From Armatimonadota bacterium (GTDB taxonomy: Bacteria > Armatimonadota > SYMT01): a DNA stretch of 64,000 nucleotides. A program made the translations under genes and the position numbers. Under the pieces are notes generated by a model. That model saw nothing but the letters and a program-made list of their open reading frames with translations, made no database searches and had not been told where the DNA came from. Where the stretch lies: contig JAWLHY010000002.1 in the NCBI GenBank assembly GCA_041690135.1, positions 720,342 through 784,341 of the forward strand. The letters are read 5' to 3'. Below are positions 3,817-53,338 of the stretch, one piece after another (position 1 is the stretch's first letter; every line of letters starts with the position of its first letter).

Positions 3817-6825
<3,009 letters not shown>

Positions 6826-40297: not shown

Positions 40298-42466
40298 TCA
40301 GGCAGGCACCTGGTCTTTCGGGCGGCTCCAGAAGCGGTGCTGCGCCAGGGCACTCAGGAGTTCCCGCGCCACATCTCCGACGTCCTCACCCTGCGAAATG
40401 CCGACCGCATCCTTCACCTTGTCCACCACCGAGGTGTTGACGTGGCCCGCGGTGATCACCCCCTGATCCACCACGAGCTTCCCGTCCGTCGCCACGGAGA
40501 CGCCCGGCAGACCGGAGAGGAGCGTCACGCCTTCCCCCGTGGCGACCAGCGGTTTCCCGTGCTTGTAGGCCTCGCGGACGAAGTGCAGGGCATCCCCCTT
40601 CCGGCAGAGGGTCTCCGCGCTCTGCTTGCCGCCCGGCACGTATACGGCGTCGAACAGCACCGAGGCAGTCGTGGAGAAATTCTCGTCCGCCATCAGCTCG
40701 CCCCCGGAGGAAGGCTCGAGCGGGCCGCTCCGCGGGGCCACGACCTTGGCCATCACGTCCTCTGCTTTCAGCGCAGCCTTGATGGCCTCGACCTCCGCCG
40801 CGTTCACGCCGTCTGCCACTAGAATGGCGACCTTGCGGCCCCGCGCGGTACGCGGCGAGTTCTCCATACTCAGCGCCGGCGAGGAGCCGATGCCCGCCTT
40901 TTGGGGACCGGGCCTGGGTGAGGACGAGTGCGCCAGGTAACTCAGATCGCCCGTGAATTGCTTGACGCCGATCTCCGGGCCTGCGCGCTCCGCGATCTCC
41001 GGCGAGACGTTGTAGAAGAGGTCGATCATCCGCTGGCGAATGTGCAGATGTTCGACCTTGCCGAGCTCGAACTTGATGGCTTCGATGATGCGCTCCTTCT
41101 CGGGCGCGCTCATGCTGTTCCAGAAGAGCTCCGCCTGGCTGAAGTGGTCGTCGAAGCTCTCCGGACGAGCCCGGAGCTTCACCCCTTCCTGCGGCTCGGG
41201 GTAGCTGACGAAGCCCCGCGCTTTGTCCTCGTGCGGCCGCCCTTCGTCCAGGGAGTTGGGCTCATAGTTCACCCGCCGCTGGGTCACCGTGTGCCGCATA
41301 AAGCCGTCCTGATTGTTGTTGAACACCGGGCAGCGCGGACGGTTGATCGGCAACTCGGGGAAGTTCGCGCTGTGGAAGCGGTTGAGCTGCGTGTCCAGGT
41401 AGGAGAAGAGACGCGCCTGCAGGAGCGGATCGTTCGTGAAGTCGATGCCTGGAACCAGGTGGCCCGGGTGGAACGCTACCTGCTCCGTCTCCGCGAAGAA
41501 GTTGTCCGGGTTCCGGTTGAGGGTCATCTTCCCCACTCGCCGGACCGGGACCAGTTCCTCGGGTACGATCTTCGTGGCGTCCAGGACATCGAAGTCGAAC
41601 CGGTTGGCCTCCTCCTCCGTGAATAACTGGAAGCCGAGCTCGAACTCCGGGTAGACCCCCATCTCGATGCGCTCCCAGAGATCCTTGCGGTTGAAGTCCG
41701 GGTCCTTCCCCGCGATCTTCTGCGTCTCGTCCCAGACCAGGGATGAGAGCCCTTCCAGCGGCTTCCAATGGATTTTGCACAGGGTGGACTTACCCTGCGC
41801 GTTGATGAGGCGGAAGGTGTGAACCCCGAAGCCTTCCATCTTCGCGTAGCTGCGGGGGAGCGCCCGGTCCGAGAGGACCCACAGCAGCATGTGCGTGATT
41901 TCGGGGGTGAGCGAGGCGAAGTCCCAGAAATTGTCGTGCGCGGCGGAGGCCTGCGGCATCTCGTGGTGCGGCTCCGGCTTGATGGAGTGCACCAGGTCCG
42001 GGAACTTCATCCCGTCCTGGATGAAGAAGACCGGGATGTTGTTGCCGACCAGGTCATAGATTCCCTCGACGGTGTAGAACTTGGTCGCAAACCCGCGGAC
42101 GTCCCGGACCGTATCCGCGGAACCCCGGAACCCGACCACCGTGGAGAAGCGGGTGAACGTCTCCGTTTCCAGTGAGGGGTCCGTAAGGAACTTCGCCTTG
42201 GTGAACTCCTTCATTGAGTCGTCGTAGACGCGGAACACACCGTGAGCTCCAGAACCGCGGGCATGGACCACGCGCTCCGGCATTCGCTCATGGTCGAAGT
42301 GCGTCATCTTCTCCCGGAAGATGAAGTCCTCCATGAGCGTTCCGCCGCGCGGGCCGGCGGTGAGCTGATTCTGATTGTTCGCGACCGGGCAACCCTGATT
42401 GGTCGTCATGAGTTGCTGGTCGCCCTTCTCAAGGGGCTGTTCCGAGTCGTGGACTGGCTCTGCCAT
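40298..42466 (-). CDS. katE: Large-subunit catalase HPII with C-terminal DJ-1/GATase domain
   Basis: [34 protein letters not shown]...FDAVYVPGG. Confidence 0.97.
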
Positions 42467-42874
42467 GGGTCGGTGAATCTCCTGATCGCACAGCCGGAAG
42501 GCGGACCGGTGCCGGCCCGACCGCCTGGCTAAGGCTCGCCGTCTCCTCGTGCCCGGGAGCCAGCGGGGGATCAGAAGGCTGCTCTACGGGAGCCGCCCAC
42601 CGATGCCGCGCGTGCGGGAGCGCCCGTAGCACGAAGATGCTTGGTGTTGTGGCTGATTTTCCCGTCGAACCCGTTCTCTAAACCACGCTCTGTTATATTG
42701 GCAACATCTGCACTGCTGAAGCTGCTGCTCCGAGGCTCCGTCACGACCTGCCGCGGGTGCAGGGCCGTCACAACGAGAACGGCGCAGTGAGGAGTGTTTC
42801 CCTGCGCCGAGAGGGGAGAAGGTGGGGACGAAGGGGTGAGGAATGCCGATGCATCAGGAAGAGCGTCTGCGGCG

Positions 42875-43333
42875 TCATCCCGCTGTTGGTAGCTCCTGGA
42901 CCTTCGCTGCCTCGGTCAGCATCGTGCGTCCGGCGTTATCCGGCACGCCCAGCTCGTCCTCGCTCCAGTCGTCCCAGCGGCGGAACCACTGGATCACCTC
43001 GATGTTGTTTCCGTCCGGGTCCGCGATGAAGAAGCGGTCCGCCCCGGCGATCGGCACCGTCTCCCGGATTTCCACGCCACGGGCGGCCAGGGTCTCCCGC
43101 GCGGCCTGTACGTCGTCCACGTGGAGCGCCATGTGGCGGGGGGAGACGAAGTCCGGCGTATCGTTGGGGATCAGGTGGATCTGCTGTTCCCCCAGCTCGA
43201 ACCAGCGGACGGGGGTGACGAAGTTGGTGGGGCGCTTGACCTCCTTGAGGCCCAGCGTTTCGCCGTAGAAGGCGACGGCGCGCTCCATGTCGGCGACAAG
43301 GATCGAAACGTGGTGGATGCCGGTGAGTTTCAT
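42875..43333 (-). CDS. VOC/glyoxalase family protein
   Basis: [37 protein letters not shown]. Confidence 0.92.
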   Translation of the reverse strand: MKLTGIHHVSILVADMERAVAFYGETLGLKEVKRPTNFVTPVRWFELGEQQIHLIPNDTPDFVSPRHMALHVDDVQAARETLAARGVEIRETVPIAGADRFFIADPDGNNIEVIQWFRRWDDWSEDELGVPDNAGRTMLTEAAKVQELPTAG

Positions 43334-43391
43334 CGTGCTTCAATCATGGCACCGGGAGGCGGCAGACGTCCGGCCCCGGAAGCACGGCAGC

Positions 43392-43486
43392 ACCCCAGGG
43401 CCAAGCTCACCCACCAAGCCCGCACCTGGCCTTCCGCTTACGCTGCCGGCTACGCCGGGCCTGGTCGGGTGCAGCGACTTTTAGGC
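43392..43486 (-). mobile_element. Integron attC site with a degenerate R' box
   Basis: Minus strand GCCTAAA-AGTC-GCT(G)CACCC(G)ACCAGGCCCG...CGGGCTTGGT-GGGTGAGC-TTGGCC-CTGGGG: long inverted repeat with two extrahelical bases. The GNAT stop lies in the R'' box; the GTT core is lost. Confidence 0.75.
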
Positions 43487-43951
43487 CGTCGCTTCCGGTG
43501 AGAGTGCCTTCATGAGATGATACTTGGCGTGCCCGCAAGAGTCCCAATCATGGAGTTCACCCACCACTTGATAGCCGAGTCGCCGGTAGAAGCCAGGGGC
43601 TTGATAGGACATGGTGTCCACATAGGCGTACTTACACCCGCGGCGTTCCGCCTCCGCTTCCGCGCGCCTAACCAGTTCTGTTCCAATGCCGCAACCGCGC
43701 AACTCCGCCCGGACGGCCATGACGGCCAGTTTGAACCAAGAGAACTGCGTCTCGCCCAGCAGTCCGCCCGCTACCGCTCCCTCTGCATCGAAGGCGATGA
43801 TGATGAGCGGCAGAGGGGCATTGGCTGGCTCTGCGACGCGTGCCCAGAACACCGGATTGGCGGTTTGGTTGAAGCTCCGGAGTTCGTCGTAAACGGCTTC
43901 TCGGATAGTCGTGTCGAGTTGCGAGGTGAGTTCGTAGCGACAGTTTCTCAA
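43481..43951 (-). CDS. GNAT N-acetyltransferase (gene cassette)
   Basis: RGCGIGTEL, DTMSYQAPGFYRRLGY; TTG start after GGAGG; flanked by attC sites. Confidence 0.9.
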   Translation of the reverse strand: MRNCRYELTSQLDTTIREAVYDELRSFNQTANPVFWARVAEPANAPLPLIIIAFDAEGAVAGGLLGETQFSWFKLAVMAVRAELRGCGIGTELVRRAEAEAERRGCKYAYVDTMSYQAPGFYRRLGYQVVGELHDWDSCGHAKYHLMKALSPEATA

Positions 43952-43998
43952 CAGGTTACCTCCGAGTTTCTGATGCCAGGCTCCAAAGAAGCACGGCG

Positions 43999-44056
43999 GT
44001 GTAACGTTGGCGCTCATCCGCGGCGGCTGCGGCTCGGTGCAGCGCCTTGGTTAGCC
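43999..44056 (-). mobile_element. Integron attC site
   Basis: Minus strand GGCTAAC-CAAGG-CGCTGCACCG...CGGATGAGCG-CCAAC-GTTACAC; near-consensus RYYYAAC/GTTRRRY ends and complementary L boxes. Confidence 0.85.
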
Positions 44057-44138
44057 CGCCCTTCCCGAAGCACATGGACGCTGGAGCGTCAAACCAAGAC
44101 GTGCTGCTGCTCGTTCTGCGATCGCACGATGTTTTGGG

Positions 44139-44250
44139 TTCGCCACTCATCTGCTCGAAGATGGCTACAACAACCGCACCGTGCAGGAGTTGCTGGGTCA
44201 CAAGGACGTGAGCACGACCACGATCTACATCCACTTCCTCAACCGCGACG
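44139..44250 (+). pseudogene. intI: C-terminal remnant of an integron integrase (IntI-type tyrosine recombinase)
   Basis: [36 protein letters not shown] matches IntI box II ([37 protein letters not shown]); no upstream part of the gene is present. Confidence 0.85.
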
Positions 44251-44372
44251 GGCGTGACGAAGTTAGAGGGGCGCTTGACCTCTTTGAGGCCCAGGGTTTC
44301 GCCGTAAAAGGCGACGGCGCGCTCCATGTCGGAGACGAGGATGGAGATGTGGTGGATGCCGGTGAGCTTCAC
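44247..44372 (-). pseudogene. Truncated second copy of the VOC gene 5' end
   Basis: 126 nt aligning with 43208-43333 with 13 differences by manual count; interrupted at the intI remnant. Confidence 0.85.
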
Positions 44373-44390
44373 GGTGCTGGGTGGGTATCG

Positions 44391-45023
44391 CTACTTGTTG
44401 CCGGCCAGCGTGAAGTAGCTGGTCATCAGGTTCCGGTAGTTGGGGATGTAGTTGGAGAAGAGCATGCCGAGGCCTTCGATGTCGTTGCGCCAGTCGCGGT
44501 GCAGCTCGCAGGCCATTCCGAACCAATTGATCAACTGCACGCCGGCCGCCTGCATGCGGAGCCAGGCCGTGTGCCGCGTCACCTCGTTGAAGGTCCCGGA
44601 GGCGTCCGTGATGACGAATACCTCGTAGCCTTCCTCGACAGCGGAGAGGGCCGGGAAGGCTACGCAAACTTCGGTCACCACACCGGCGATGATCAACTGC
44701 TTCCGCCCGGTGGCCTTCACTGCCTTCACGAAGTCCTCGTTGTCCCAGGCGTTGATGTTGCCGGGCCGGGCGATGTAAGGCGCGTCCGGGAACATCTCCT
44801 TGAGTTCCGGCACCAGCGGCCCGTTGGGTCCGTTCTCGAAGCTGGTGGTGAGAATGGTCGGAAGCTCGAAGTACTTCGCGCAGGCCGCCGTGGCCAGCAC
44901 GTTGTTCTTGAAAGCGCTCGGCTCGAAGTCCTGGACCAGAGAGATCAGGCCTGCCTGGTGGTCGACCAACAGAATCGCGGCATCGTCTTTGGCAAGACGG
45001 CGGTATTGAAACGGCGCACTCAT
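44391..45023 (-). CDS. ycaC: YcaC-like isochorismatase family hydrolase
   Basis: [50 protein letters not shown]. Confidence 0.9.
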
Positions 45024-45208
45024 GATCAGCCTCCGTCGGCGGTGAAATGTAATGGGGTTTTACCTCAAGAGCCGGTGGGTGTCCGGTGCTTCATCCGATC
45101 GTGGGAGGAGGGGTGCGGGTTCCTTCCATAACCTTCCACGAAGCGCCGAGATCGACGACTGGCAGGTCATACCGTCATTCCGCGGAACTGCCGGCCTTCT
45201 GGAACATG

Positions 45209-45928
45209 CTATCTGGCGCCAAACCGTTTCAGAAGGCGGACCATCTCCAGGAACTTTTCCGCCCGGGCTCTATCTATCGCGGTGGCACCGGCATGGTCTT
45301 CAGCGTCGACCCGCGCTCCGTGTTTCAGCAGGACCTCGGCTGTTTTCAAGGCGTTTGTGCCGCCCTCAAACCCGCCATCAGCCACGACCATCAGTGCGGT
45401 GGACCCATCCGGGTAAGTCTGCTCCGGGTTCGCACCGTGTTCCAATAGAATGCGCACCATCTCCCATCTGCCATAGTGAGCGGCGTGAATGAGGGGGCTG
45501 ATTCCCGACACCTTTGAGTCAATCTTTGCCCCATGTGCGAGTAGGAGCCGTACCACTTCCGGGTTGCCGGATGCTCCGGCATAGCGCAGGGCAGTCCCGC
45601 CGCCACGATCCGTCTGATTAGGGCTATGCCCTTTCTTGAGAAGTGCCCGGACGGCTGATGCATCGCCAATGAAGGCTGCTAACATCAGGACCGTCTGACC
45701 ACTTGGACCGGTCATGTCGAGGTCTTCGGACCTGCGGATCCGATCGTGCAGTATCAGTTCTGCCCAGCGATTGTCCGTCTGTGGAACCAGGTAGGTCGCG
45801 TGGAAGGTGTCCTGGAGCTCCTCTCGCCTCGCAGCCGCATGTCGACGCTCCGCTGCGGAATGTCCGAGCCCGATGGCACAGAGTATCATCGCCAATGTAA
45901 CGGTAAGGCCGAAGAATCTACGCGACAT
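45209..45928 (-). CDS. Secreted ankyrin repeat protein
   Basis: N-terminal signal; GQTVLMLAA, GGTALRYAG, GISPLIHAA, GSTALM, GATAID. Confidence 0.9.
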   Translation of the reverse strand: MSRRFFGLTVTLAMILCAIGLGHSAAERRHAAARREELQDTFHATYLVPQTDNRWAELILHDRIRRSEDLDMTGPSGQTVLMLAAFIGDASAVRALLKKGHSPNQTDRGGGTALRYAGASGNPEVVRLLLAHGAKIDSKVSGISPLIHAAHYGRWEMVRILLEHGANPEQTYPDGSTALMVVADGGFEGGTNALKTAEVLLKHGARVDAEDHAGATAIDRARAEKFLEMVRLLKRFGAR

Positions 45929-46005
45929 AAATCGTTGACTGCTTTGATTGGACGTTCAAGCTCACCTCCTGCGGCGGGGAGGGGAGTTGCGTCACGAATG
46001 AGCCT

Positions 46006-46329
46006 TCATTCCTGCGGCGGCCAGTAGCTGTCGCAGACCGCAGGTGGAAGGGCGGATCTCGCCATCAGATCCGGGATATGCCCGAACCGCGGTCGTGGCC
46101 TCTCCGTCAGGATCAGCTCGTATTCATCTTCCTCTAGTTGGGTGCGACCGCTCAGCCAGTAAGCAACGATGCGATGATGCCCGTCGTCCACCTAGATCGA
46201 GCCATCTTCCGCTTCGCTCAAGCGAATCGGAGGGATGGGTTCGCCCTTTGCAATCGCCTGCAACAGGGCAGGAATCTGTTCCGCGCGCCGCAGGTTCCGC
46301 TGCGACACGAATAGCATGGTGATGTCCAT
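46006..46329 (-). pseudogene. ParB/Srx-like small protein interrupted by an in-frame TAG
   Basis: GGAGG + ATG 46329: MDITMLFVSQRNLRRAEQIPALLQAIAKGEPIPPIRLSEAEDGSI*VDDGHHRIVAYW...; TAG at 46192-46194. Confidence 0.75.
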
Positions 46330-46481
46330 GTTGACCTCCAGCGGATGCTGGAGATCGGTCCATCACGGGCCTTTGCATGGAATGTATAGGATGTCATCTT
46401 GAGTTCGCTCGCCGGGGCCTTCGTTTCACCCGCGGCTTGCCGCAATTTCGCGGGTGGTCCGCCGGTGTCGCCGGGAATGTG

Positions 46482-46964
46482 TCATTGCGCAGTTTCCTCG
46501 GAAGTGGCCGGCCGAGCGCCCTGTCTTTCCAGGCGTGCCTTCGCCTTGGGCGCCGCCTTTTCGTACGCCTCTACGATGAGAGACGAAACAGACACGAATG
46601 TCTCTTCGCTGGGGTTGAGCACGCACACCCACGACATTGGGCTGTAAGTCGGGTGAGGCATGAGGCGGTCCAACTGCCGGTAGTCGTGGCCCGTCTCGAC
46701 GACACTCCAGTCCTTAGGTGGAGCGGGCGGAGGGCCGAACAGCCGGGTGTAGGTCTCCTTGCTGATGCCGACGTTCAACCGATAGACCCCGGCGCGGCTG
46801 AGCTCGGACACGGGTGCGGCATCGTGAACGTCCCTGGTGACGAGGGTCGCGAACGGCATCATGCGGTCCTCACCGCAGAAGAAGAACGTGTCGCCTTCGG
46901 TAGTAACACGCTGGGCGCCGGGGCACAGGGCCAGAATGCGCTCGATTACGGTTTCTTCGTTCAT
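46482..46964 (-). CDS. DUF6194 family protein
   Basis: MMPFATLVT, GVYRLNVGI, LDRLMPHPTYSPMSWVCVLNPS. Confidence 0.8.
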   Translation of the reverse strand: MNEETVIERILALCPGAQRVTTEGDTFFFCGEDRMMPFATLVTRDVHDAAPVSELSRAGVYRLNVGISKETYTRLFGPPPAPPKDWSVVETGHDYRQLDRLMPHPTYSPMSWVCVLNPSEETFVSVSSLIVEAYEKAAPKAKARLERQGARPATSEETAQ

Positions 46965-46987
46965 GCTGTCAGGTTCCGGAGTCGGAT

Positions 46988-47045
46988 GCGTAACAGATGC
47001 CCCTGCTCATCCGTCAGCATAGATCGGCTGCGGCGACGGTTAGGC
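46988..47045 (-). mobile_element. Degenerate attC site
   Basis: Minus strand GCCTAAC-CGTCG-CCGCAGCCG...CGGATGAGC-(10 nt)-GTTACGC; the stop of the Imm1-like gene lies within GCCTAAC. Confidence 0.6.
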
Positions 47046-47456
47046 CGGCATTCCTTCCCCGTTCTCCCAGCGGATGTTCTCGGTCCTGCGTTGGTCCCGT
47101 ACAAACTCACGGACCGCACGCATGGCCTCGGCAAAGGGCACGAAGTTGCGCCGGTGGAACGGGGTCCAGTTTCCGCAGCCACCGAAACCCACACTGTCGG
47201 TGGCACCGGCGTCCCCCACGGACAGGTAGTACTCCCCGTCGAACGGCTCCACCTGGACCATCACAAACGTGGGGTCCGCCCCGAGGCCCACATGGAGGAG
47301 GTAGTGGGGGATCTCCACGGTCGCGCAGAGGGGCCGGTCGCGGTCGCAATTGCGGCCGATCTCGTGCAAGACCGCTTCCATCTCGTCTACCGAGCCGCAC
47401 CGGAGTGGCGGCCGGTCCTCAGCGATGTGGATCCGGATCTCATCTGGAACTGGCAT
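47040..47456 (-). CDS. Imm1-like immunity protein
   Basis: LHVGLG...VPFAEAMRAVREFVRDQRRTENIRWE pattern. Confidence 0.7.
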   Translation of the reverse strand: MPVPDEIRIHIAEDRPPLRCGSVDEMEAVLHEIGRNCDRDRPLCATVEIPHYLLHVGLGADPTFVMVQVEPFDGEYYLSVGDAGATDSVGFGGCGNWTPFHRRNFVPFAEAMRAVREFVRDQRRTENIRWENGEGMPA

Positions 47457-48027
47457 GACGGATCTTCGTGTCGGCAGCAGCATCGAGAATTCGAACCGTT
47501 CGGAGACCCGCATCCAGCGCGCGCATCAGCGTGTCGAGCCGGCTGTCACCGAAATCACGAGCGGGCATCCGCTGGAGAACCGCACCGACTTCCGGCGGAG
47601 CCTGCTCGATGGCCCGGCGGATCTCGCTGTCGCCTACTGCCGCGTCACCGGATTGCTCGAGCTCGCATGCCCATGCCGCATACGCTGCGGGGCCAAGCAC
47701 ATGGTTCGTTTGATGGGGCGTCGCCAGGGGGTGCAGGTAGGCTATGGCCGCCGCCAGCCCCGCCGCGCGCGCGGCAGCCTTCGCCGCCGGAGGGTCTACC
47801 TCCCTTGCGGCCGCATACGCTGCCCAGGCACATGAGCGCAGCTTTGCGGTGCGCCTCCCCCTTCGCGCGAACTCCATAATGCCTTCGACCGCCGCCCGGG
47901 GCCGGGAATCGGACGGGGCGTGTGCTTCAAAAACCGGCAAAGCCCGGGTGGCGCAATCCGCAGCCCAGCGCCCGAGAACCCAGATCTCCTCCGGTTCCAG
48001 CGGGATCACGCTGTCCTTTTGGGTCAT
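47440..48027 (-). CDS. Imm5-like putative immunity protein
   Basis: WAADCATRALPVFE...SDSRPRAAVE, AAARAAGLAAA, HVLGPAAYAA. Confidence 0.75.
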   Translation of the reverse strand: MTQKDSVIPLEPEEIWVLGRWAADCATRALPVFEAHAPSDSRPRAAVEGIMEFARRGRRTAKLRSCAWAAYAAAREVDPPAAKAAARAAGLAAAIAYLHPLATPHQTNHVLGPAAYAAWACELEQSGDAAVGDSEIRRAIEQAPPEVGAVLQRMPARDFGDSRLDTLMRALDAGLRTVRILDAAADTKIRHASSR

Positions 48028-48044
48028 TCATCGCTCCTCTTGCT

Positions 48045-48848
48045 TCAATCGATGAAGCTGACGACCCGGAGATCTTTGAAGTTCAGCTCACGCAGGACCA
48101 GCACTTGCCCGATCATGCGATGCACCCACTCGTTCCACGTATCATCACCAGCATCCGAGGCCAGTCCCACGCACTCCGGGGGGGCCGCAAACCGCGGCTG
48201 CTGCGCCCGGATCTGCTCCAGCACGGTGACCACGAACTCTGCCTCTTCCTGCGTCCACACGCCCATCTGGAGGCCGGCGTCGTCTGTGGGAATGATCGGG
48301 AAGGCGAAATCCCCGAGCGTGAAGGACCGACTTGGCAGGGGTTTTCCACAATCACAGCCACGGAGCACCTTCTGCCAGAGCAGGACAAACTGCTCGTAAT
48401 CTTCGCGCGCAATTCCGGGGGCCTGCTCCGCATAAGCCAGCAGGCTCCCGATCCACCAGCGACGCTGCCCGTGGGTGACTCTGCGGATGAACGGATAGGA
48501 GGCGCATTGGCTGAAGGCTTGTAAGAGCGCCATCAGGCCCCAGCTTTCGTCCCGGGCCAGGTGTTCGCGGATCGTCTTTGAGAGGAAGGGATGTTCGGCG
48601 ACCGTTTCGCGGGTCAGAACCACAGGTTCATGGCGGGGCGAGGACCACACGTAGGGAGGCTCTCCGGGGTAGGCGATGTAGTATCCTCTCGACTGCTCAT
48701 CGTACCAGCAGAGTTCATCCACTTCGCCCGGAGGATCGCGCCGCAAACCGCGCTCGGCGTAGAGCCAGAGGACGTCGCCCACGGGCTGGTCGAGAAGCTC
48801 ATCCAGTCCGGCAAGGTCAACTGCATACAGTTGGATACGAACGCCCAT
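48045..48848 (-). CDS. Hypothetical protein (acidic, immunity-like)
   Basis: MGVRIQLYAVDL...VVSFID; co-oriented in the small-gene array. Confidence 0.65.
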   Translation of the reverse strand: MGVRIQLYAVDLAGLDELLDQPVGDVLWLYAERGLRRDPPGEVDELCWYDEQSRGYYIAYPGEPPYVWSSPRHEPVVLTRETVAEHPFLSKTIREHLARDESWGLMALLQAFSQCASYPFIRRVTHGQRRWWIGSLLAYAEQAPGIAREDYEQFVLLWQKVLRGCDCGKPLPSRSFTLGDFAFPIIPTDDAGLQMGVWTQEEAEFVVTVLEQIRAQQPRFAAPPECVGLASDAGDDTWNEWVHRMIGQVLVLRELNFKDLRVVSFID

Positions 48849-49006
48849 CGTGAGAAGTGGATGGTCTCGATGCCTGAGGCCTCCGGGCGGCAGTCACGGC
48901 CCGTCACGCGGTCGGGTGCCGCGACTGCCAGGGTGCGATCTGCCTGGGGATGCTGCACTCCGACGTCCGGCGGAGTAGTTTAATCGACGCGGGTGACGGT
49001 TTACAC

Positions 49007-49486
49007 TTATTCATCCGTATTCTCGCGTTCCAAATGGCTGCGCACATCAAGGAGTTCGCCAGGGTCCAGTTGCCAGGCCCATAGATCCACCGCCGCACGA
49101 AGTACGTCTGGGCGTAGCCAGTCGACTATCTGGGCTCGAACGGCTGCGGAATAACCGATGTGTTCCAGGAAGGCTACCCCCACTGCGTTCCCAGGGTCTT
49201 CATCTGCCTCTGGGTCCGCATCCCAACACCAATGGACAAAGTCGTAGATGGCTCTGAGGTCCTCGGTGTTCGAACTCTCGTGAGCCCTCACGCATAACGG
49301 CGCCAGTTCCCCAAAGACATGGTAAATGGAATCATTACTCTCCAGAACCGGTGCGAGATCCCGATGTAGGGCGCGGAAGAGTTGGTTAGCCTGCTGCCGC
49401 CAGGCCGAAGTTGTCGAACACGGCAAAACGGTTCGAGTACCTGCCGAACGCCTGCCGCGATCTGCACTGCACTTCCGTTGGCTCAT
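49007..49486 (-). CDS. DUF7674-like helical hypothetical protein
   Basis: SAWRQQA, AIYDFVHWCW, NAVGVAFLEHI; start uncertain. Confidence 0.6.
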   Translation of the reverse strand: MSQRKCSADRGRRSAGTRTVLPCSTTSAWRQQANQLFRALHRDLAPVLESNDSIYHVFGELAPLCVRAHESSNTEDLRAIYDFVHWCWDADPEADEDPGNAVGVAFLEHIGYSAAVRAQIVDWLRPDVLRAAVDLWAWQLDPGELLDVRSHLERENTDE

Positions 49487-49631
49487 GCTGCGCTCCCTGT
49501 CCCGGCCAGCACGCCGCGGACTAACGCTCTGCCGTTCCGGACCGGAAAACGTAAGATGGAGCATGCAACTAGTTGGCAAGCACCGCAACCATAATTGATT
49601 TGTTCGTCCAGTTCAGGCCATTTGGCCGGCA

Positions 49632-49950
49632 TTAGATCAGGGTGACCGGCTTTCCGTGTCGGAGCTGCCAGCCGGGCTCTCCGAGTTCGGTCACCCCCAC
49701 CGCGAGTGTCCAGCCATTGGAGAACGTGAGAGTAAGCTCCCCTCCGGGTTGAAGGCACACGTGCTCGATTCGCTCGCCCAACAGGTCCAGCAATGGCGCC
49801 AACTCACGCGGGTTGTGGCCACTGCCTGGCCTGGCTCCCGGAAGCACCAGTTGATCGTCGTCGCGAGTAAGCGTGAGCACTTCTGCCAGGGCCAGGTCAT
49901 ACAGCGGTTCGTTTACGCCTGCTGGTTCAACCGCCCAGCGTGAAGTCTTG
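49632..49950 (-). pseudogene. DUF6188-like protein, N-terminus apparently degraded
   Basis: LLDLLGERIEHVCLQPGGELTLTFSNGWTLAV; no convincing start or RBS. Confidence 0.45.
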
Positions 49951-50108
49951 CAGCAGTGTTCGTCAGCACGACAGTCAGCCCCGATTTTCGGAAGTGGGCG
50001 TGCTTTACGGAAACAAGCAGAGTACGAAACTTTCTCTTCCCCATTCTTTCCGCGTCGTTCCGTGTGTTCCGCGGGCACAAACGATTCGCCGCTCGGCAGC
50101 CCTCTTGG

Positions 50109-51967: not shown

Positions 51968-53338
51968 TCAGATGGATCCGAATATCAGCGGAAAGAGGAC
52001 CACCACGATCGCCGCCCACACGGCGTAGACCGGCAGGTAGTCCGTCTGCCACCGCTCGAGGGCCGCGAACGATCCGCGCCCCCGCAGAAAGCGGAGGTAG
52101 AGCACGGCGGACCACGCCAGGTTGACCAGGAGGATCACGTTCTCCCCCAGGGCGGCCACGCGGTTCGGGGTGAAGCCGAACCCGGTGATGCGCGCGGCAA
52201 TGGCCCACAGCGCCACCGCGTCCGCCAGCAGCGCGCAGACCACGAGTACCACCTGCACCACGTCGAAGGCGCCGGGCGGCGACTGGGGATCTCGGGCGGA
52301 GAGGGAGTAGAGCAGCAGTCCCAGGACCAGGACCAGGAGCAGGTCGAACGCGATGAGCACGTTCCGCTCGATGTCGACGCCGCGCCCGGTCCACAGCAGG
52401 GTCCCCAGGAACGCCACCAGCACCGCGGCGAAGAGGGGGGTGAACAGGCGCGTCAACACGGGCGCCATGTTTTCGATCACGCTCTGCTTGGCCTCTACCA
52501 GCCAGGAAGCGATCAGCACGGCCCCGGCCGCCCCACAAGGCAGCAGCCACGACTCGAAGAACGGCTCGACGTCGATCCCGATGGCCTGGTAGATCAACGC
52601 CATGAACGCGGTGAGAACGCCGCCGCCGAGCGCGATCAATACATAGTAGATGAAGAGCTCGCCCGAGAACCGGATGAAGTCCATGCGGCCGCTCACCTGG
52701 TCCCACCGGTCACCCGCGTATGCAACCCCTACTACCAGCCAGAGTGCGATCGGCAGGTGCAGCGCCGTAAGCATCTCGGTGTAGCCGCCCGGGGCGAAGG
52801 GATAGATATTGGCGAACACCGCCGCAACGAAAAGCGCCGCAGCCAGCCAGCGGATCATCCGGGCATCGAGCCGCCGTTTCCAGACGAAGTATCCGGCCAG
52901 GAGGGGCAGCACGAAGAGGCTCAGATTGCGGGCGTAGAAAGCGGCGTCCTCGTCCAGTTGCAGCCCGAAGAGCGCCGGCAGCTTGATGGCCATGGCCGCC
53001 GCCACGGCCAGCCCGAAGGCGACGAAGGCCTCCATCCGAACGTGCGCCTGGGGCTCCCCGGAATCCGCGGGGGCCATCACGAGCTGTCTCCAGAGGCGCT
53101 CCGAGTGCTCCCGCGCAAACTCGCGGGAGAGGGCATCGAGGTTGCCCATGCGCTTCACCGCCACCAGGAACGCCTCATCCGTGGCGAGCCCCGCGTCGGT
53201 CAGAACCGCTATCTGCTCGCGCAGATGGTCCTCCAACTCCGCCACGTCGGCGGACTGGATTGCCTGCCGACGGCGGACAAAGCTCCGCCAGCGGTCGATC
53301 TGTTCCTCGAGCGAAACCGCGTTACCTGAGGCCCACAT
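51968..53338 (-). CDS. Permease prefix domain 1-containing membrane protein
   Basis: ELEDHL...EAFLVAVKRMG N-terminal domain followed by many TMs; lies downstream of PadR. Confidence 0.88.
   Translation of the reverse strand: MWASGNAVSLEEQIDRWRSFVRRRQAIQSADVAELEDHLREQIAVLTDAGLATDEAFLVAVKRMGNLDALSREFAREHSERLWRQLVMAPADSGEPQAHVRMEAFVAFGLAVAAAMAIKLPALFGLQLDEDAAFYARNLSLFVLPLLAGYFVWKRRLDARMIRWLAAALFVAAVFANIYPFAPGGYTEMLTALHLPIALWLVVGVAYAGDRWDQVSGRMDFIRFSGELFIYYVLIALGGGVLTAFMALIYQAIGIDVEPFFESWLLPCGAAGAVLIASWLVEAKQSVIENMAPVLTRLFTPLFAAVLVAFLGTLLWTGRGVDIERNVLIAFDLLLVLVLGLLLYSLSARDPQSPPGAFDVVQVVLVVCALLADAVALWAIAARITGFGFTPNRVAALGENVILLVNLAWSAVLYLRFLRGRGSFAALERWQTDYLPVYAVWAAIVVVLFPLIFGSI

Follow-up and report, generated by a model that had tools for sequence, protein, structure and literature searches.

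Integron integrases (IntI) are tyrosine recombinases that recombine the folded bottom strands of attC sites at the R' box, inserting and excising gene cassettes. The intI gene normally lies divergent from attI and from the cassette array, and the feature that separates IntI from the recombinases XerC and XerD is an additional domain, which lies between patch III and box II. In a canonical attC site the R'' and R' boxes pair, the L'' and L' arms form a helix with extrahelical bases, and the spacers are unpaired. The DNA considered here, referred to as the window, is a stretch of 64,000 nucleotides from an Armatimonadota bacterium (assembly GCA_041690135.1, contig JAWLHY010000002.1; G000:C2:720342-784341 in our genome set), whose genome assembly of 9.1 Mb is 97% complete. 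It holds a scrap of an intI gene, two attC sites (attC1 and attC2) and a GNAT N-acetyltransferase gene between these sites, an arrangement that is probably the non-functional remnant of a chromosomal integron.

The closest described systems are of two kinds. Clusters of attC sites lacking an integron integrase (CALINs) were defined by Cury et al. 2016 (PMC4889954); there, 15 of 279 CALINs have an intI pseudogene nearby, the criterion being coverage of more than 50% of the intI_Cterm profile. [quoted passage not shown] A third point of comparison comes from our own sample: genome G010, which belongs to another family of the phylum, contains a sedentary chromosomal integron.

The window locus is a small CALIN with a recognisable intI scrap, a genomic fossil of an ordinary kind. 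A CALIN is defined by two or more attC sites that are separated by less than 4 kb and have no integrase gene near them, and such a pair is present, provided that the marginal attC1 is accepted. A complete integron is not: intI is down to 108 bases, no attI is recognisable and 0 promoter sites were predicted. The likeness to the CALINs of PMC4889954 extends to the cassette spacing of attC sites lying within 4 kb on one strand, the lack of a functional integrase, an adjoining trace of intI and a cassette gene that is not a known resistance gene. The differences from that account are that the trace here is only 36 residues long, has no IntI-specific domain and would fail the criterion of more than 50% of intI_Cterm; that one of the two attC sites has no R' box; and that the scrap lies between cassette runs and not at their end. 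The likeness to the G010 integron is closer in sequence. The attC family is the same (L'' ...AAGGCGCTGCACCCGA..., L' ...CGGGTGAGCTT...), as is the layout of helix, bulges and spacers; intI and cassettes are divergent in both, and 107 bases of intI are 80% identical. However, G010 has a full IntI of 321 residues and intact R'/R'' complementarity between its cassettes, and the window has neither.

The integrase scrap is the piece on which the recognition of the locus turns. It matches the integron integrase family TIGR02249 at 44136-44273 (profile positions 267-311 of 315) with a score of 53.9-57.6 bits, the top TIGR02249 match of the entire genome. As expected for a piece of 36 residues, it lies below the curated cut-off of 265 bits; no match above that cut-off occurs anywhere in the genome, which has no intact intI. 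The excised peptide scores 57.6 bits with IntI, 48 with XerD and 45.7 with XerC, which places its box II nearer to IntI than to Xer, with a margin that is small since the piece is short. In a tblastn search the IntIs at 13 loci of the phylum showed 70-81% identity to the 36 residues, with an ...HxLNR ending in common, and the four loci of the own genome that are Xer-like gave only a chance-level match (15.8 bits, E 4.9). A DNA search of 40 relatives linked the relic to genomes from a different family of the phylum, best to G010, where the 80% identity has sharp limits at 44139 and 44245/6. The G010 protein is itself a sound comparator, since it scores 428 bits with TIGR02249 and has the IntI-specific extra domain. 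IntI relatives in named genomes are 48-64% identical and are spread across many phyla. A preliminary description of this DNA, made from its letters alone, had read a box II fragment of IntI on the plus strand, and these comparisons bear out the fragment and favour its family.

Both ends of the scrap are cuts. No IntI homology was found upstream of 44139 by DNA alignment, by BLASTP or in an NCBIfam scan of the longer translation, and the IntI-specific domain, whose region would lie upstream of this cut, is gone. At the other end the homology stops at 44246, about 12-15 codons before the normal end of intI. The hidden Markov model (HMM) alignment does run on to 44273, which we take to be a coincidence, because this stretch is the antisense strand of a truncated VOC/glyoxalase gene (VOC') and the complete VOC gene nearby gives a similar antisense reading. 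Judged on its residues, the piece appears IntI-like by every test that is still possible, short of a full test of membership.

Between the relic and attC1 lie 80 bases without IntI homology. Their minus-strand reading, which ends in ...CASGRAG, stops on the TAA of the attC1 R'' box GGCTAAC, an observation of the preliminary description that the translation confirms; it comprises 26-29 codons only and could represent the end of a cassette gene that has since disappeared. A search with attC1 and this region in the own genome and in G007, G010, G025 and G038 returned the self-match only.

The attC sites were sought with two covariance models, neither of which contains a site from the window. Model R1 was made from 10 sites (four from G010, one from G038 and five from other contigs of the own genome, C1 and C18), and model R2 from the 21 sites that R1 found in G010, G038 and the C1 and C18 loci of the own genome; the window was searched on both strands with all filters off, and E-values are for the whole window. 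Pairing of the L helix holds in 89% of cells over the 21 sites, with one covarying pair (CG in nine, UA in nine). The R helix is poorly aligned, the cause being a one-base difference in the spacer. The family is anchored in G010, where at least four repeats of about 100 nt lie beside intI, with arms ...AAC-AAGGCGCTGCACCCGACCGCC and GGCGGCGGGTGAGCTTRGTC-GTT..., and where the R' of each repeat is complementary to the next R'', as the structure of cassettes demands. Both window sites carry the same arms.

The site downstream of the GNAT gene, attC2, is found by both models (R1, 43.4 bits, E 1.9e-10; R2, 38.2 bits, E 5.4e-9). Its L helix carries two bulges at a distance of 6 nt, like the G010 sites, and its arms match arrays that adjoin genuine intI genes in G010 and G038. 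The L''/L' arms are conserved, and the R' box reads CCTGGGG instead of GTTRRRY, so that the GTT cleavage motif is absent; the dead R' box reported earlier is thus upheld. The site upstream of the gene, attC1, ranks third with both models, at 14.5 bits (R1, E 0.074) and 13.2 bits (R2, E 0.23). It is accepted because of other features. The 13-mer AAGGCGCTGCACC of the L'' arm in the G010 array consensus has a single exact occurrence in the window, and this is at attC1; with up to one mismatch there are three matches compared with 0.22 expected, a number reached in 0 of 100 shuffles. The R'' and R' boxes, GGCTAAC and GTTACAC, each depart once from the consensus RYYYAAC and GTTRRRY. The site shares its strand with attC2, from which it is separated by 511 bases on the upstream side, a cassette spacing, and the GNAT gene starts 48 bases after the attC1 R' box. 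Its L helix has one bulge and an extra bulged A. Of the earlier description of attC1 as near-canonical, the arm and the boxes stand; the models, at E 0.07-0.23 only, do not establish the site by themselves.

The GNAT gene between the two sites matches PF13508 (Acetyltransf_7; 45.4 bits, cut-off 27) and PF00583 (Acetyltransf_1; 43.7 bits, cut-off 20.7), with E of about 1e-11, and an LRGxGxG stretch, the acetyl-CoA motif, is conserved across 16 aligned sequences. Its best NCBIfam equivalog matches, of about 28 bits, are far under their cut-offs. Alignment with 15 of its 35 homologues, the nearest of which are 81% and 72% identical, places the true start at a TTG 7 bases after GGAGG; the homologues are 150-156 residues long, which fits the 156 residues here. 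An ATG at 44017, which would give an open reading frame (ORF) of 178 codons, lies inside attC1 and is ruled out as the start by the same alignment. This ATG is created by a change in the L' arm of attC1 from GGGTGAGC to GGATGAGC, which adds 22 codons of frame into the attC site, and an ATG borne by attC in this manner is a likely source of mis-annotated starts. The cassette spans from about 44004 (TTACAC of the attC1 R' box) to attC2, and the stop codon of its gene, TAA at 43481-43483, lies inside the attC2 R'' box, as had been noticed before. The G+C content at third codon positions (GC3) is 0.68 in the GNAT gene versus 0.87-0.88 in the neighbouring VOC, ycaC-like and katE genes. The orientation is that of an integron, and was rightly given as such in the preliminary description: the scrap is read on the plus strand, and the attC sites and the GNAT gene on the minus strand. 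The features are collected in Table 1.

Table 1. Features of the integron remnant and its surroundings (window coordinates)
Feature	Position	Strand	Evidence
YcaC-type isochorismatase-family hydrolase gene (ycaC-like)	44391..45023	-	NF041461, 396.6 bits versus cut-off 310
VOC', first 42 codons of a putative second VOC/glyoxalase gene, GTG start	44247..44372	-	Glyoxalase profile 1-30
intI relic, 36 codons (FATHLL...HFLNR), box II with LLGH motif and catalytic-Tyr region	44139..44246	+	TIGR02249, DNA and protein identity
80 bases without assignment, attC1 to intI relic	44059..44138	.	translation; homology searches
attC1, short (about 58-60 nt), R'' GGCTAAC, R' GTTACAC	43999..44058	-	covariance models, 13-mer, fold
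GNAT N-acetyltransferase gene, 156 residues, intact, TTG start	43481..43951	-	Pfam, homologue alignment
attC2, 97 nt, R'' GCCTAAA, R' replaced by CCTGGGG	43392..43488	-	covariance models, fold
Complete VOC/glyoxalase gene, 152 residues	42875..43333	-	Pfam, orthologues
Decayed attC-like site	46988..47047	-	R1 15.9 bits, E 0.028; R2 21.0 bits, E 0.001
Decayed attC relic, R boxes gone	48882..48935	-	R2 12.7 bits, E 0.33; arm match

The manner in which the integrase was lost can be read in part from the VOC genes. On the minus strand, in descending coordinates, the order is ycaC-like gene, VOC', antisense intI relic, the 80 bases, attC1, GNAT gene, attC2, leader, complete VOC gene and catalase gene; 18 bases separate the ycaC-like gene from VOC', the leader has 58 bases, and the catalase gene (katE) lies 408 bases beyond the complete VOC gene. 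VOC', at the 3' cut of intI, was overlooked in the preliminary description. The 132 bases at 44247-44378 are 89% identical to 43208-43339, with 14 differences, and the homology reaches 6 bases upstream of the VOC' start, to 44378. Only three of 42 residues differ between VOC' and the complete VOC, and therefore both copies evolved as working genes. The identity of VOC' to the complete copy (0.90) is at the level of that between the complete copy and its orthologue in another genus (0.89), and the homology ends 6-9 bases upstream of the start codons, likewise between orthologues of different genomes. For these reasons we read VOC' as the putative stump of a second VOC gene behind the ycaC-like gene, and not as a duplication made by an insertion. 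This bears on the earlier proposal that one deletion removed most of intI, attI and most of the first cassette, which is not supported: the relic is cut at both 44139 and 44246 and joined head-on to VOC', so that at least two breakpoints are needed.

Orthologues of the VOC gene are present in five of six relatives of the same family and have no attC there. Beside these orthologues, and beside a VOC fragment on contig C1, no attC scored below E 0.2, and therefore VOC is not a cassette at those places. The leaders upstream of VOC show no conservation across relatives and cannot show which of the two copies is resident. The fragment on C1 (C1:154176-154317) is a third VOC piece, which covers codons about 96-142 with 85% identity to the complete copy and has an in-frame TGA; fragments of VOC genes are scattered in the own genome. 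A possible further attC downstream of the complete VOC gene was rejected, the arm match at 42753-42767 having three mismatches and being at chance level (7.3 expected). The ycaC-like gene was found in none of the six family relatives and in one of 60 other genomes, at 48% identity. A promoter scan of 42400-45400 gave 0 sites, and a terminator scan two terminator-like sites compared with 2.0 expected.

The scrap does not lie at the edge of the array, since decayed attC relics continue upstream on the same strand to about 49 kb. Four of the five top R2 matches in the window are on the minus strand within 43.4-48.9 kb. The upstream site at 46988-47047 follows an Imm1-family gene (47040-47513), whose stop codon lies inside the R'' box GGCCTAAC, and precedes a DUF6194 gene (46482-46964). 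The farther one has a 15-base L'' arm, AGTCGCGGCACCCGA, with one mismatch to the family consensus, the sole match at one mismatch besides attC2; it is not among the R1 matches listed (E up to 10). The co-oriented small accessory genes of this region (45209-50078, minus strand) encode ankyrin repeats, DUF6194, Imm1, Imm5-like and DUF6188 proteins and one protein without a known family. The remnant is part of a cassette-like island that is longer and more decayed, shares its strand and covers about 43.4-49 kb. Two further observations concern this region. The run of genes at 45209-50078 looks like an orphan immunity-gene island, with GC3 of 0.62-0.81, below that of the flanking genes, and a possible third relic at 52753-52768 (minus strand) consists of the 13-mer with one mismatch and a model match of 10.6 bits.

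Integron DNA of the same attC family also occurs elsewhere in this genome. At C1:530371-546145 there is a cluster of 15 attC sites, every one on the minus strand and separated by small cassette-like genes. No intact integrase lies in the vicinity, and a plus-strand gene of 846 codons interrupts the cluster at about C1:533.5-536 kb. A solitary, well-preserved attC lies at C18:96612-96700 (plus strand; 72 and 61 bits). A possible N-terminal scrap of intI, of 26 residues (RFQHLNYRTEQSHLPVIRRFNDFHRQ, C1:~532939-533016, plus strand), lies, in divergent orientation, 173 bases from an attC. Its alignment covers residues 19-44 of at least eight IntIs, and it scores 33.9 bits compared with a maximum of 24.6 in 30 shuffles; the NCBIfam scan assigned it no family and it has no HMM support.

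Integrons had been called little described in such genomes. Of 201 sampled genomes of the phylum, 13 were found to have an IntI above the cut-off; the locus sits in a soil lineage, and no such IntI was found in the six relatives of the same family. The attC family occurs in five of 41 genomes (16 matches in the own genome, 42 in G010, 16 in G038, 15 in G025 and one in G007) and again in none of the six family relatives; it is abundant in another family of the phylum.

These observations suggest a history for the locus. An integron platform would have stood here, its integrase read on the plus strand and facing away from attI and the minus-strand cassettes. At least two deletions or rearrangements would then have cut intI. 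One may have taken codons 1 to about 270 of intI together with attI, the cassette promoter Pc and the greater part of the first cassette; a further event would have removed the last 12-15 or so codons of intI and most of the neighbouring VOC gene, joining the relic to codon 42 of VOC'. The GNAT cassette can presumably no longer be excised, because IntI is absent from the genome and attC2 lacks the GTT. The gene would thus have become fixed in a co-oriented string of ycaC-like gene, VOC', GNAT and VOC, and any expression of it would probably come by read-through from upstream.

Several points weigh against this account. No attI is recognisable and no Pc promoter was found. The domain that distinguishes IntI from XerC and XerD is deleted, which leaves the family assignment to 36 residues and a 10-bit margin over XerD. 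The attC1 site is not significant by covariance models alone, and with R2 a chance-level match at 4688 also reaches 13.2 bits; both models, moreover, are specific to this attC family and differ from the general model of IntegronFinder. The single-strand fold energies of the sites are no better than those of shuffles (z -0.2 to -1.0), a test that is uninformative since a genuine G010 site behaves likewise (z -0.3). None of the contig pieces listed from metagenomes covers the junction of VOC' and intI (44246/44247). Decay in place is, finally, something that we infer, and the block could have arrived already broken.

This last possibility can be made specific. A fragment consisting of the intI scrap, attC1, the GNAT gene, attC2 and perhaps the complete VOC gene would have been imported, already broken, from a related organism and integrated, on one side through recombination anchored in VOC homology and on the other through an illegitimate join to the resident VOC gene at its codon 42. 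The 5' ends of the two VOC genes do look like alleles of different lineages, given their 14 base differences in 132 and three residue differences in 42 (0.90 versus 0.89 for the other-genus orthologue), and IntI, this attC family and the ycaC-like gene were all not found in the six family relatives. However, the homology of the two copies stops 6-9 bases before the start as it does between orthologues, so that nothing marks a repeat made by insertion; the same-strand relics upstream and the 15-site array on C1 show that integron DNA is resident in this genome; and no donor arrangement was found. Import is unlikely on this balance. It is more doubtful still that no integron platform ever existed here, the cassette or cassettes having been inserted in trans at a non-att site (attC x attG) beside an unrelated recombinase scrap. 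Small CALINs and single attC sites can arise in this way (bioRxiv 10.1101/2022.09.11.507474), and the locus resembles the cases described there in being an isolated cassette or small cluster with no local integrase and a non-canonical junction on one side; the lack of a proper R' box in attC2 is what a hybrid junction might show, and a recognisable intI pseudogene was near only 15 of 279 CALINs in the figures taken from PMC4889954. The locus differs from these cases, in so far as that preprint describes them, in its intI scrap 80 bases from attC1, which is IntI-like, the sole such piece in 9.1 Mb and divergent as in a platform, and in its attC2 junction, TTGGC-CCTGGGG, which lacks the G that such recombination would keep. 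Because of the nearby trace and the missing G, the attG route is not needed to explain the locus, and we hold it to be very improbable.

That chance alone assembled the locus, from two GC-rich inverted repeats beside an ordinary GNAT gene and a fragment of a Xer-type pseudogene, is hardly credible. The fold z-scores are unremarkable, attC1 is marginal by the models, and GNAT homologues elsewhere are without this attC family (0 of 53 metagenome loci). Against this, attC2 was detected at E 5e-9 or better by models that had never seen it, its arms match arrays beside genuine intI genes in G010 and G038, and the matches to the arms (13-mer and 15-mer) far exceed the expectation from shuffles. The remnant of a chromosomal integron thus stays the preferred explanation.

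The assembly itself appears sound at two of the junctions. The passage from the VOC start through the leader into attC2 is spanned by a metagenome contig (X4 record 22; 151 nt, 0 differences) and by X2 record 10 (355 nt, 14 differences). The join of the 80 bases to the intI relic is spanned by X2 record 13 (157 nt, 11 differences), and attC1 by X1 record 5. One of these metagenome runs may be the source of the assembly, and close strains are represented in the soil runs by pieces of 93-96% identity. These pieces argue against an assembly error at the two junctions, and since X2 record 13 carries the join of the 80 bases and intI, this break is older than the 7% divergence.

The origin of the GNAT cassette is a separate matter. 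Among 53 metagenome loci of GNAT relatives (38-74% identical), none has a credible attC of this family; two weak model matches there fall within the coding region, though on the other strand, and were taken as chance, and the 10 nearest loci have nothing attC-like at the stop codon. In the attC-rich genomes there is one relative, 44% identical, in G025, and it is not on an array contig. In the window, the GNAT gene has a textbook cassette layout, with attC sites that belong to the lineage's own family. The GNAT family seems to be mostly chromosomal outside this cassette. It is possible, but quite improbable, that the cassette is young and that its gene gained the attC site within this lineage or close to it. 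If that were true, the GNAT locus would be a rare natural snapshot of the birth of a cassette, and the decayed R' box and the scattered VOC fragments might be traces of the same recombination activity.

The locus leaves unchanged what is known of how integrons work. What it documents is the death of one: the integrase has been cut on both sides, one attC site has been disabled, and the cassette has become fixed among ordinary genes. An intI scrap of 36 residues and a degenerate attC site escape ORF tracks and the usual criteria for pseudogenes, and the reported share of CALINs with a trace of integrase (15 of 279 in PMC4889954) may be an underestimate. At the level of families within the phylum, the distribution of these elements suggests that they were acquired across families and that the integrase was lost afterwards.

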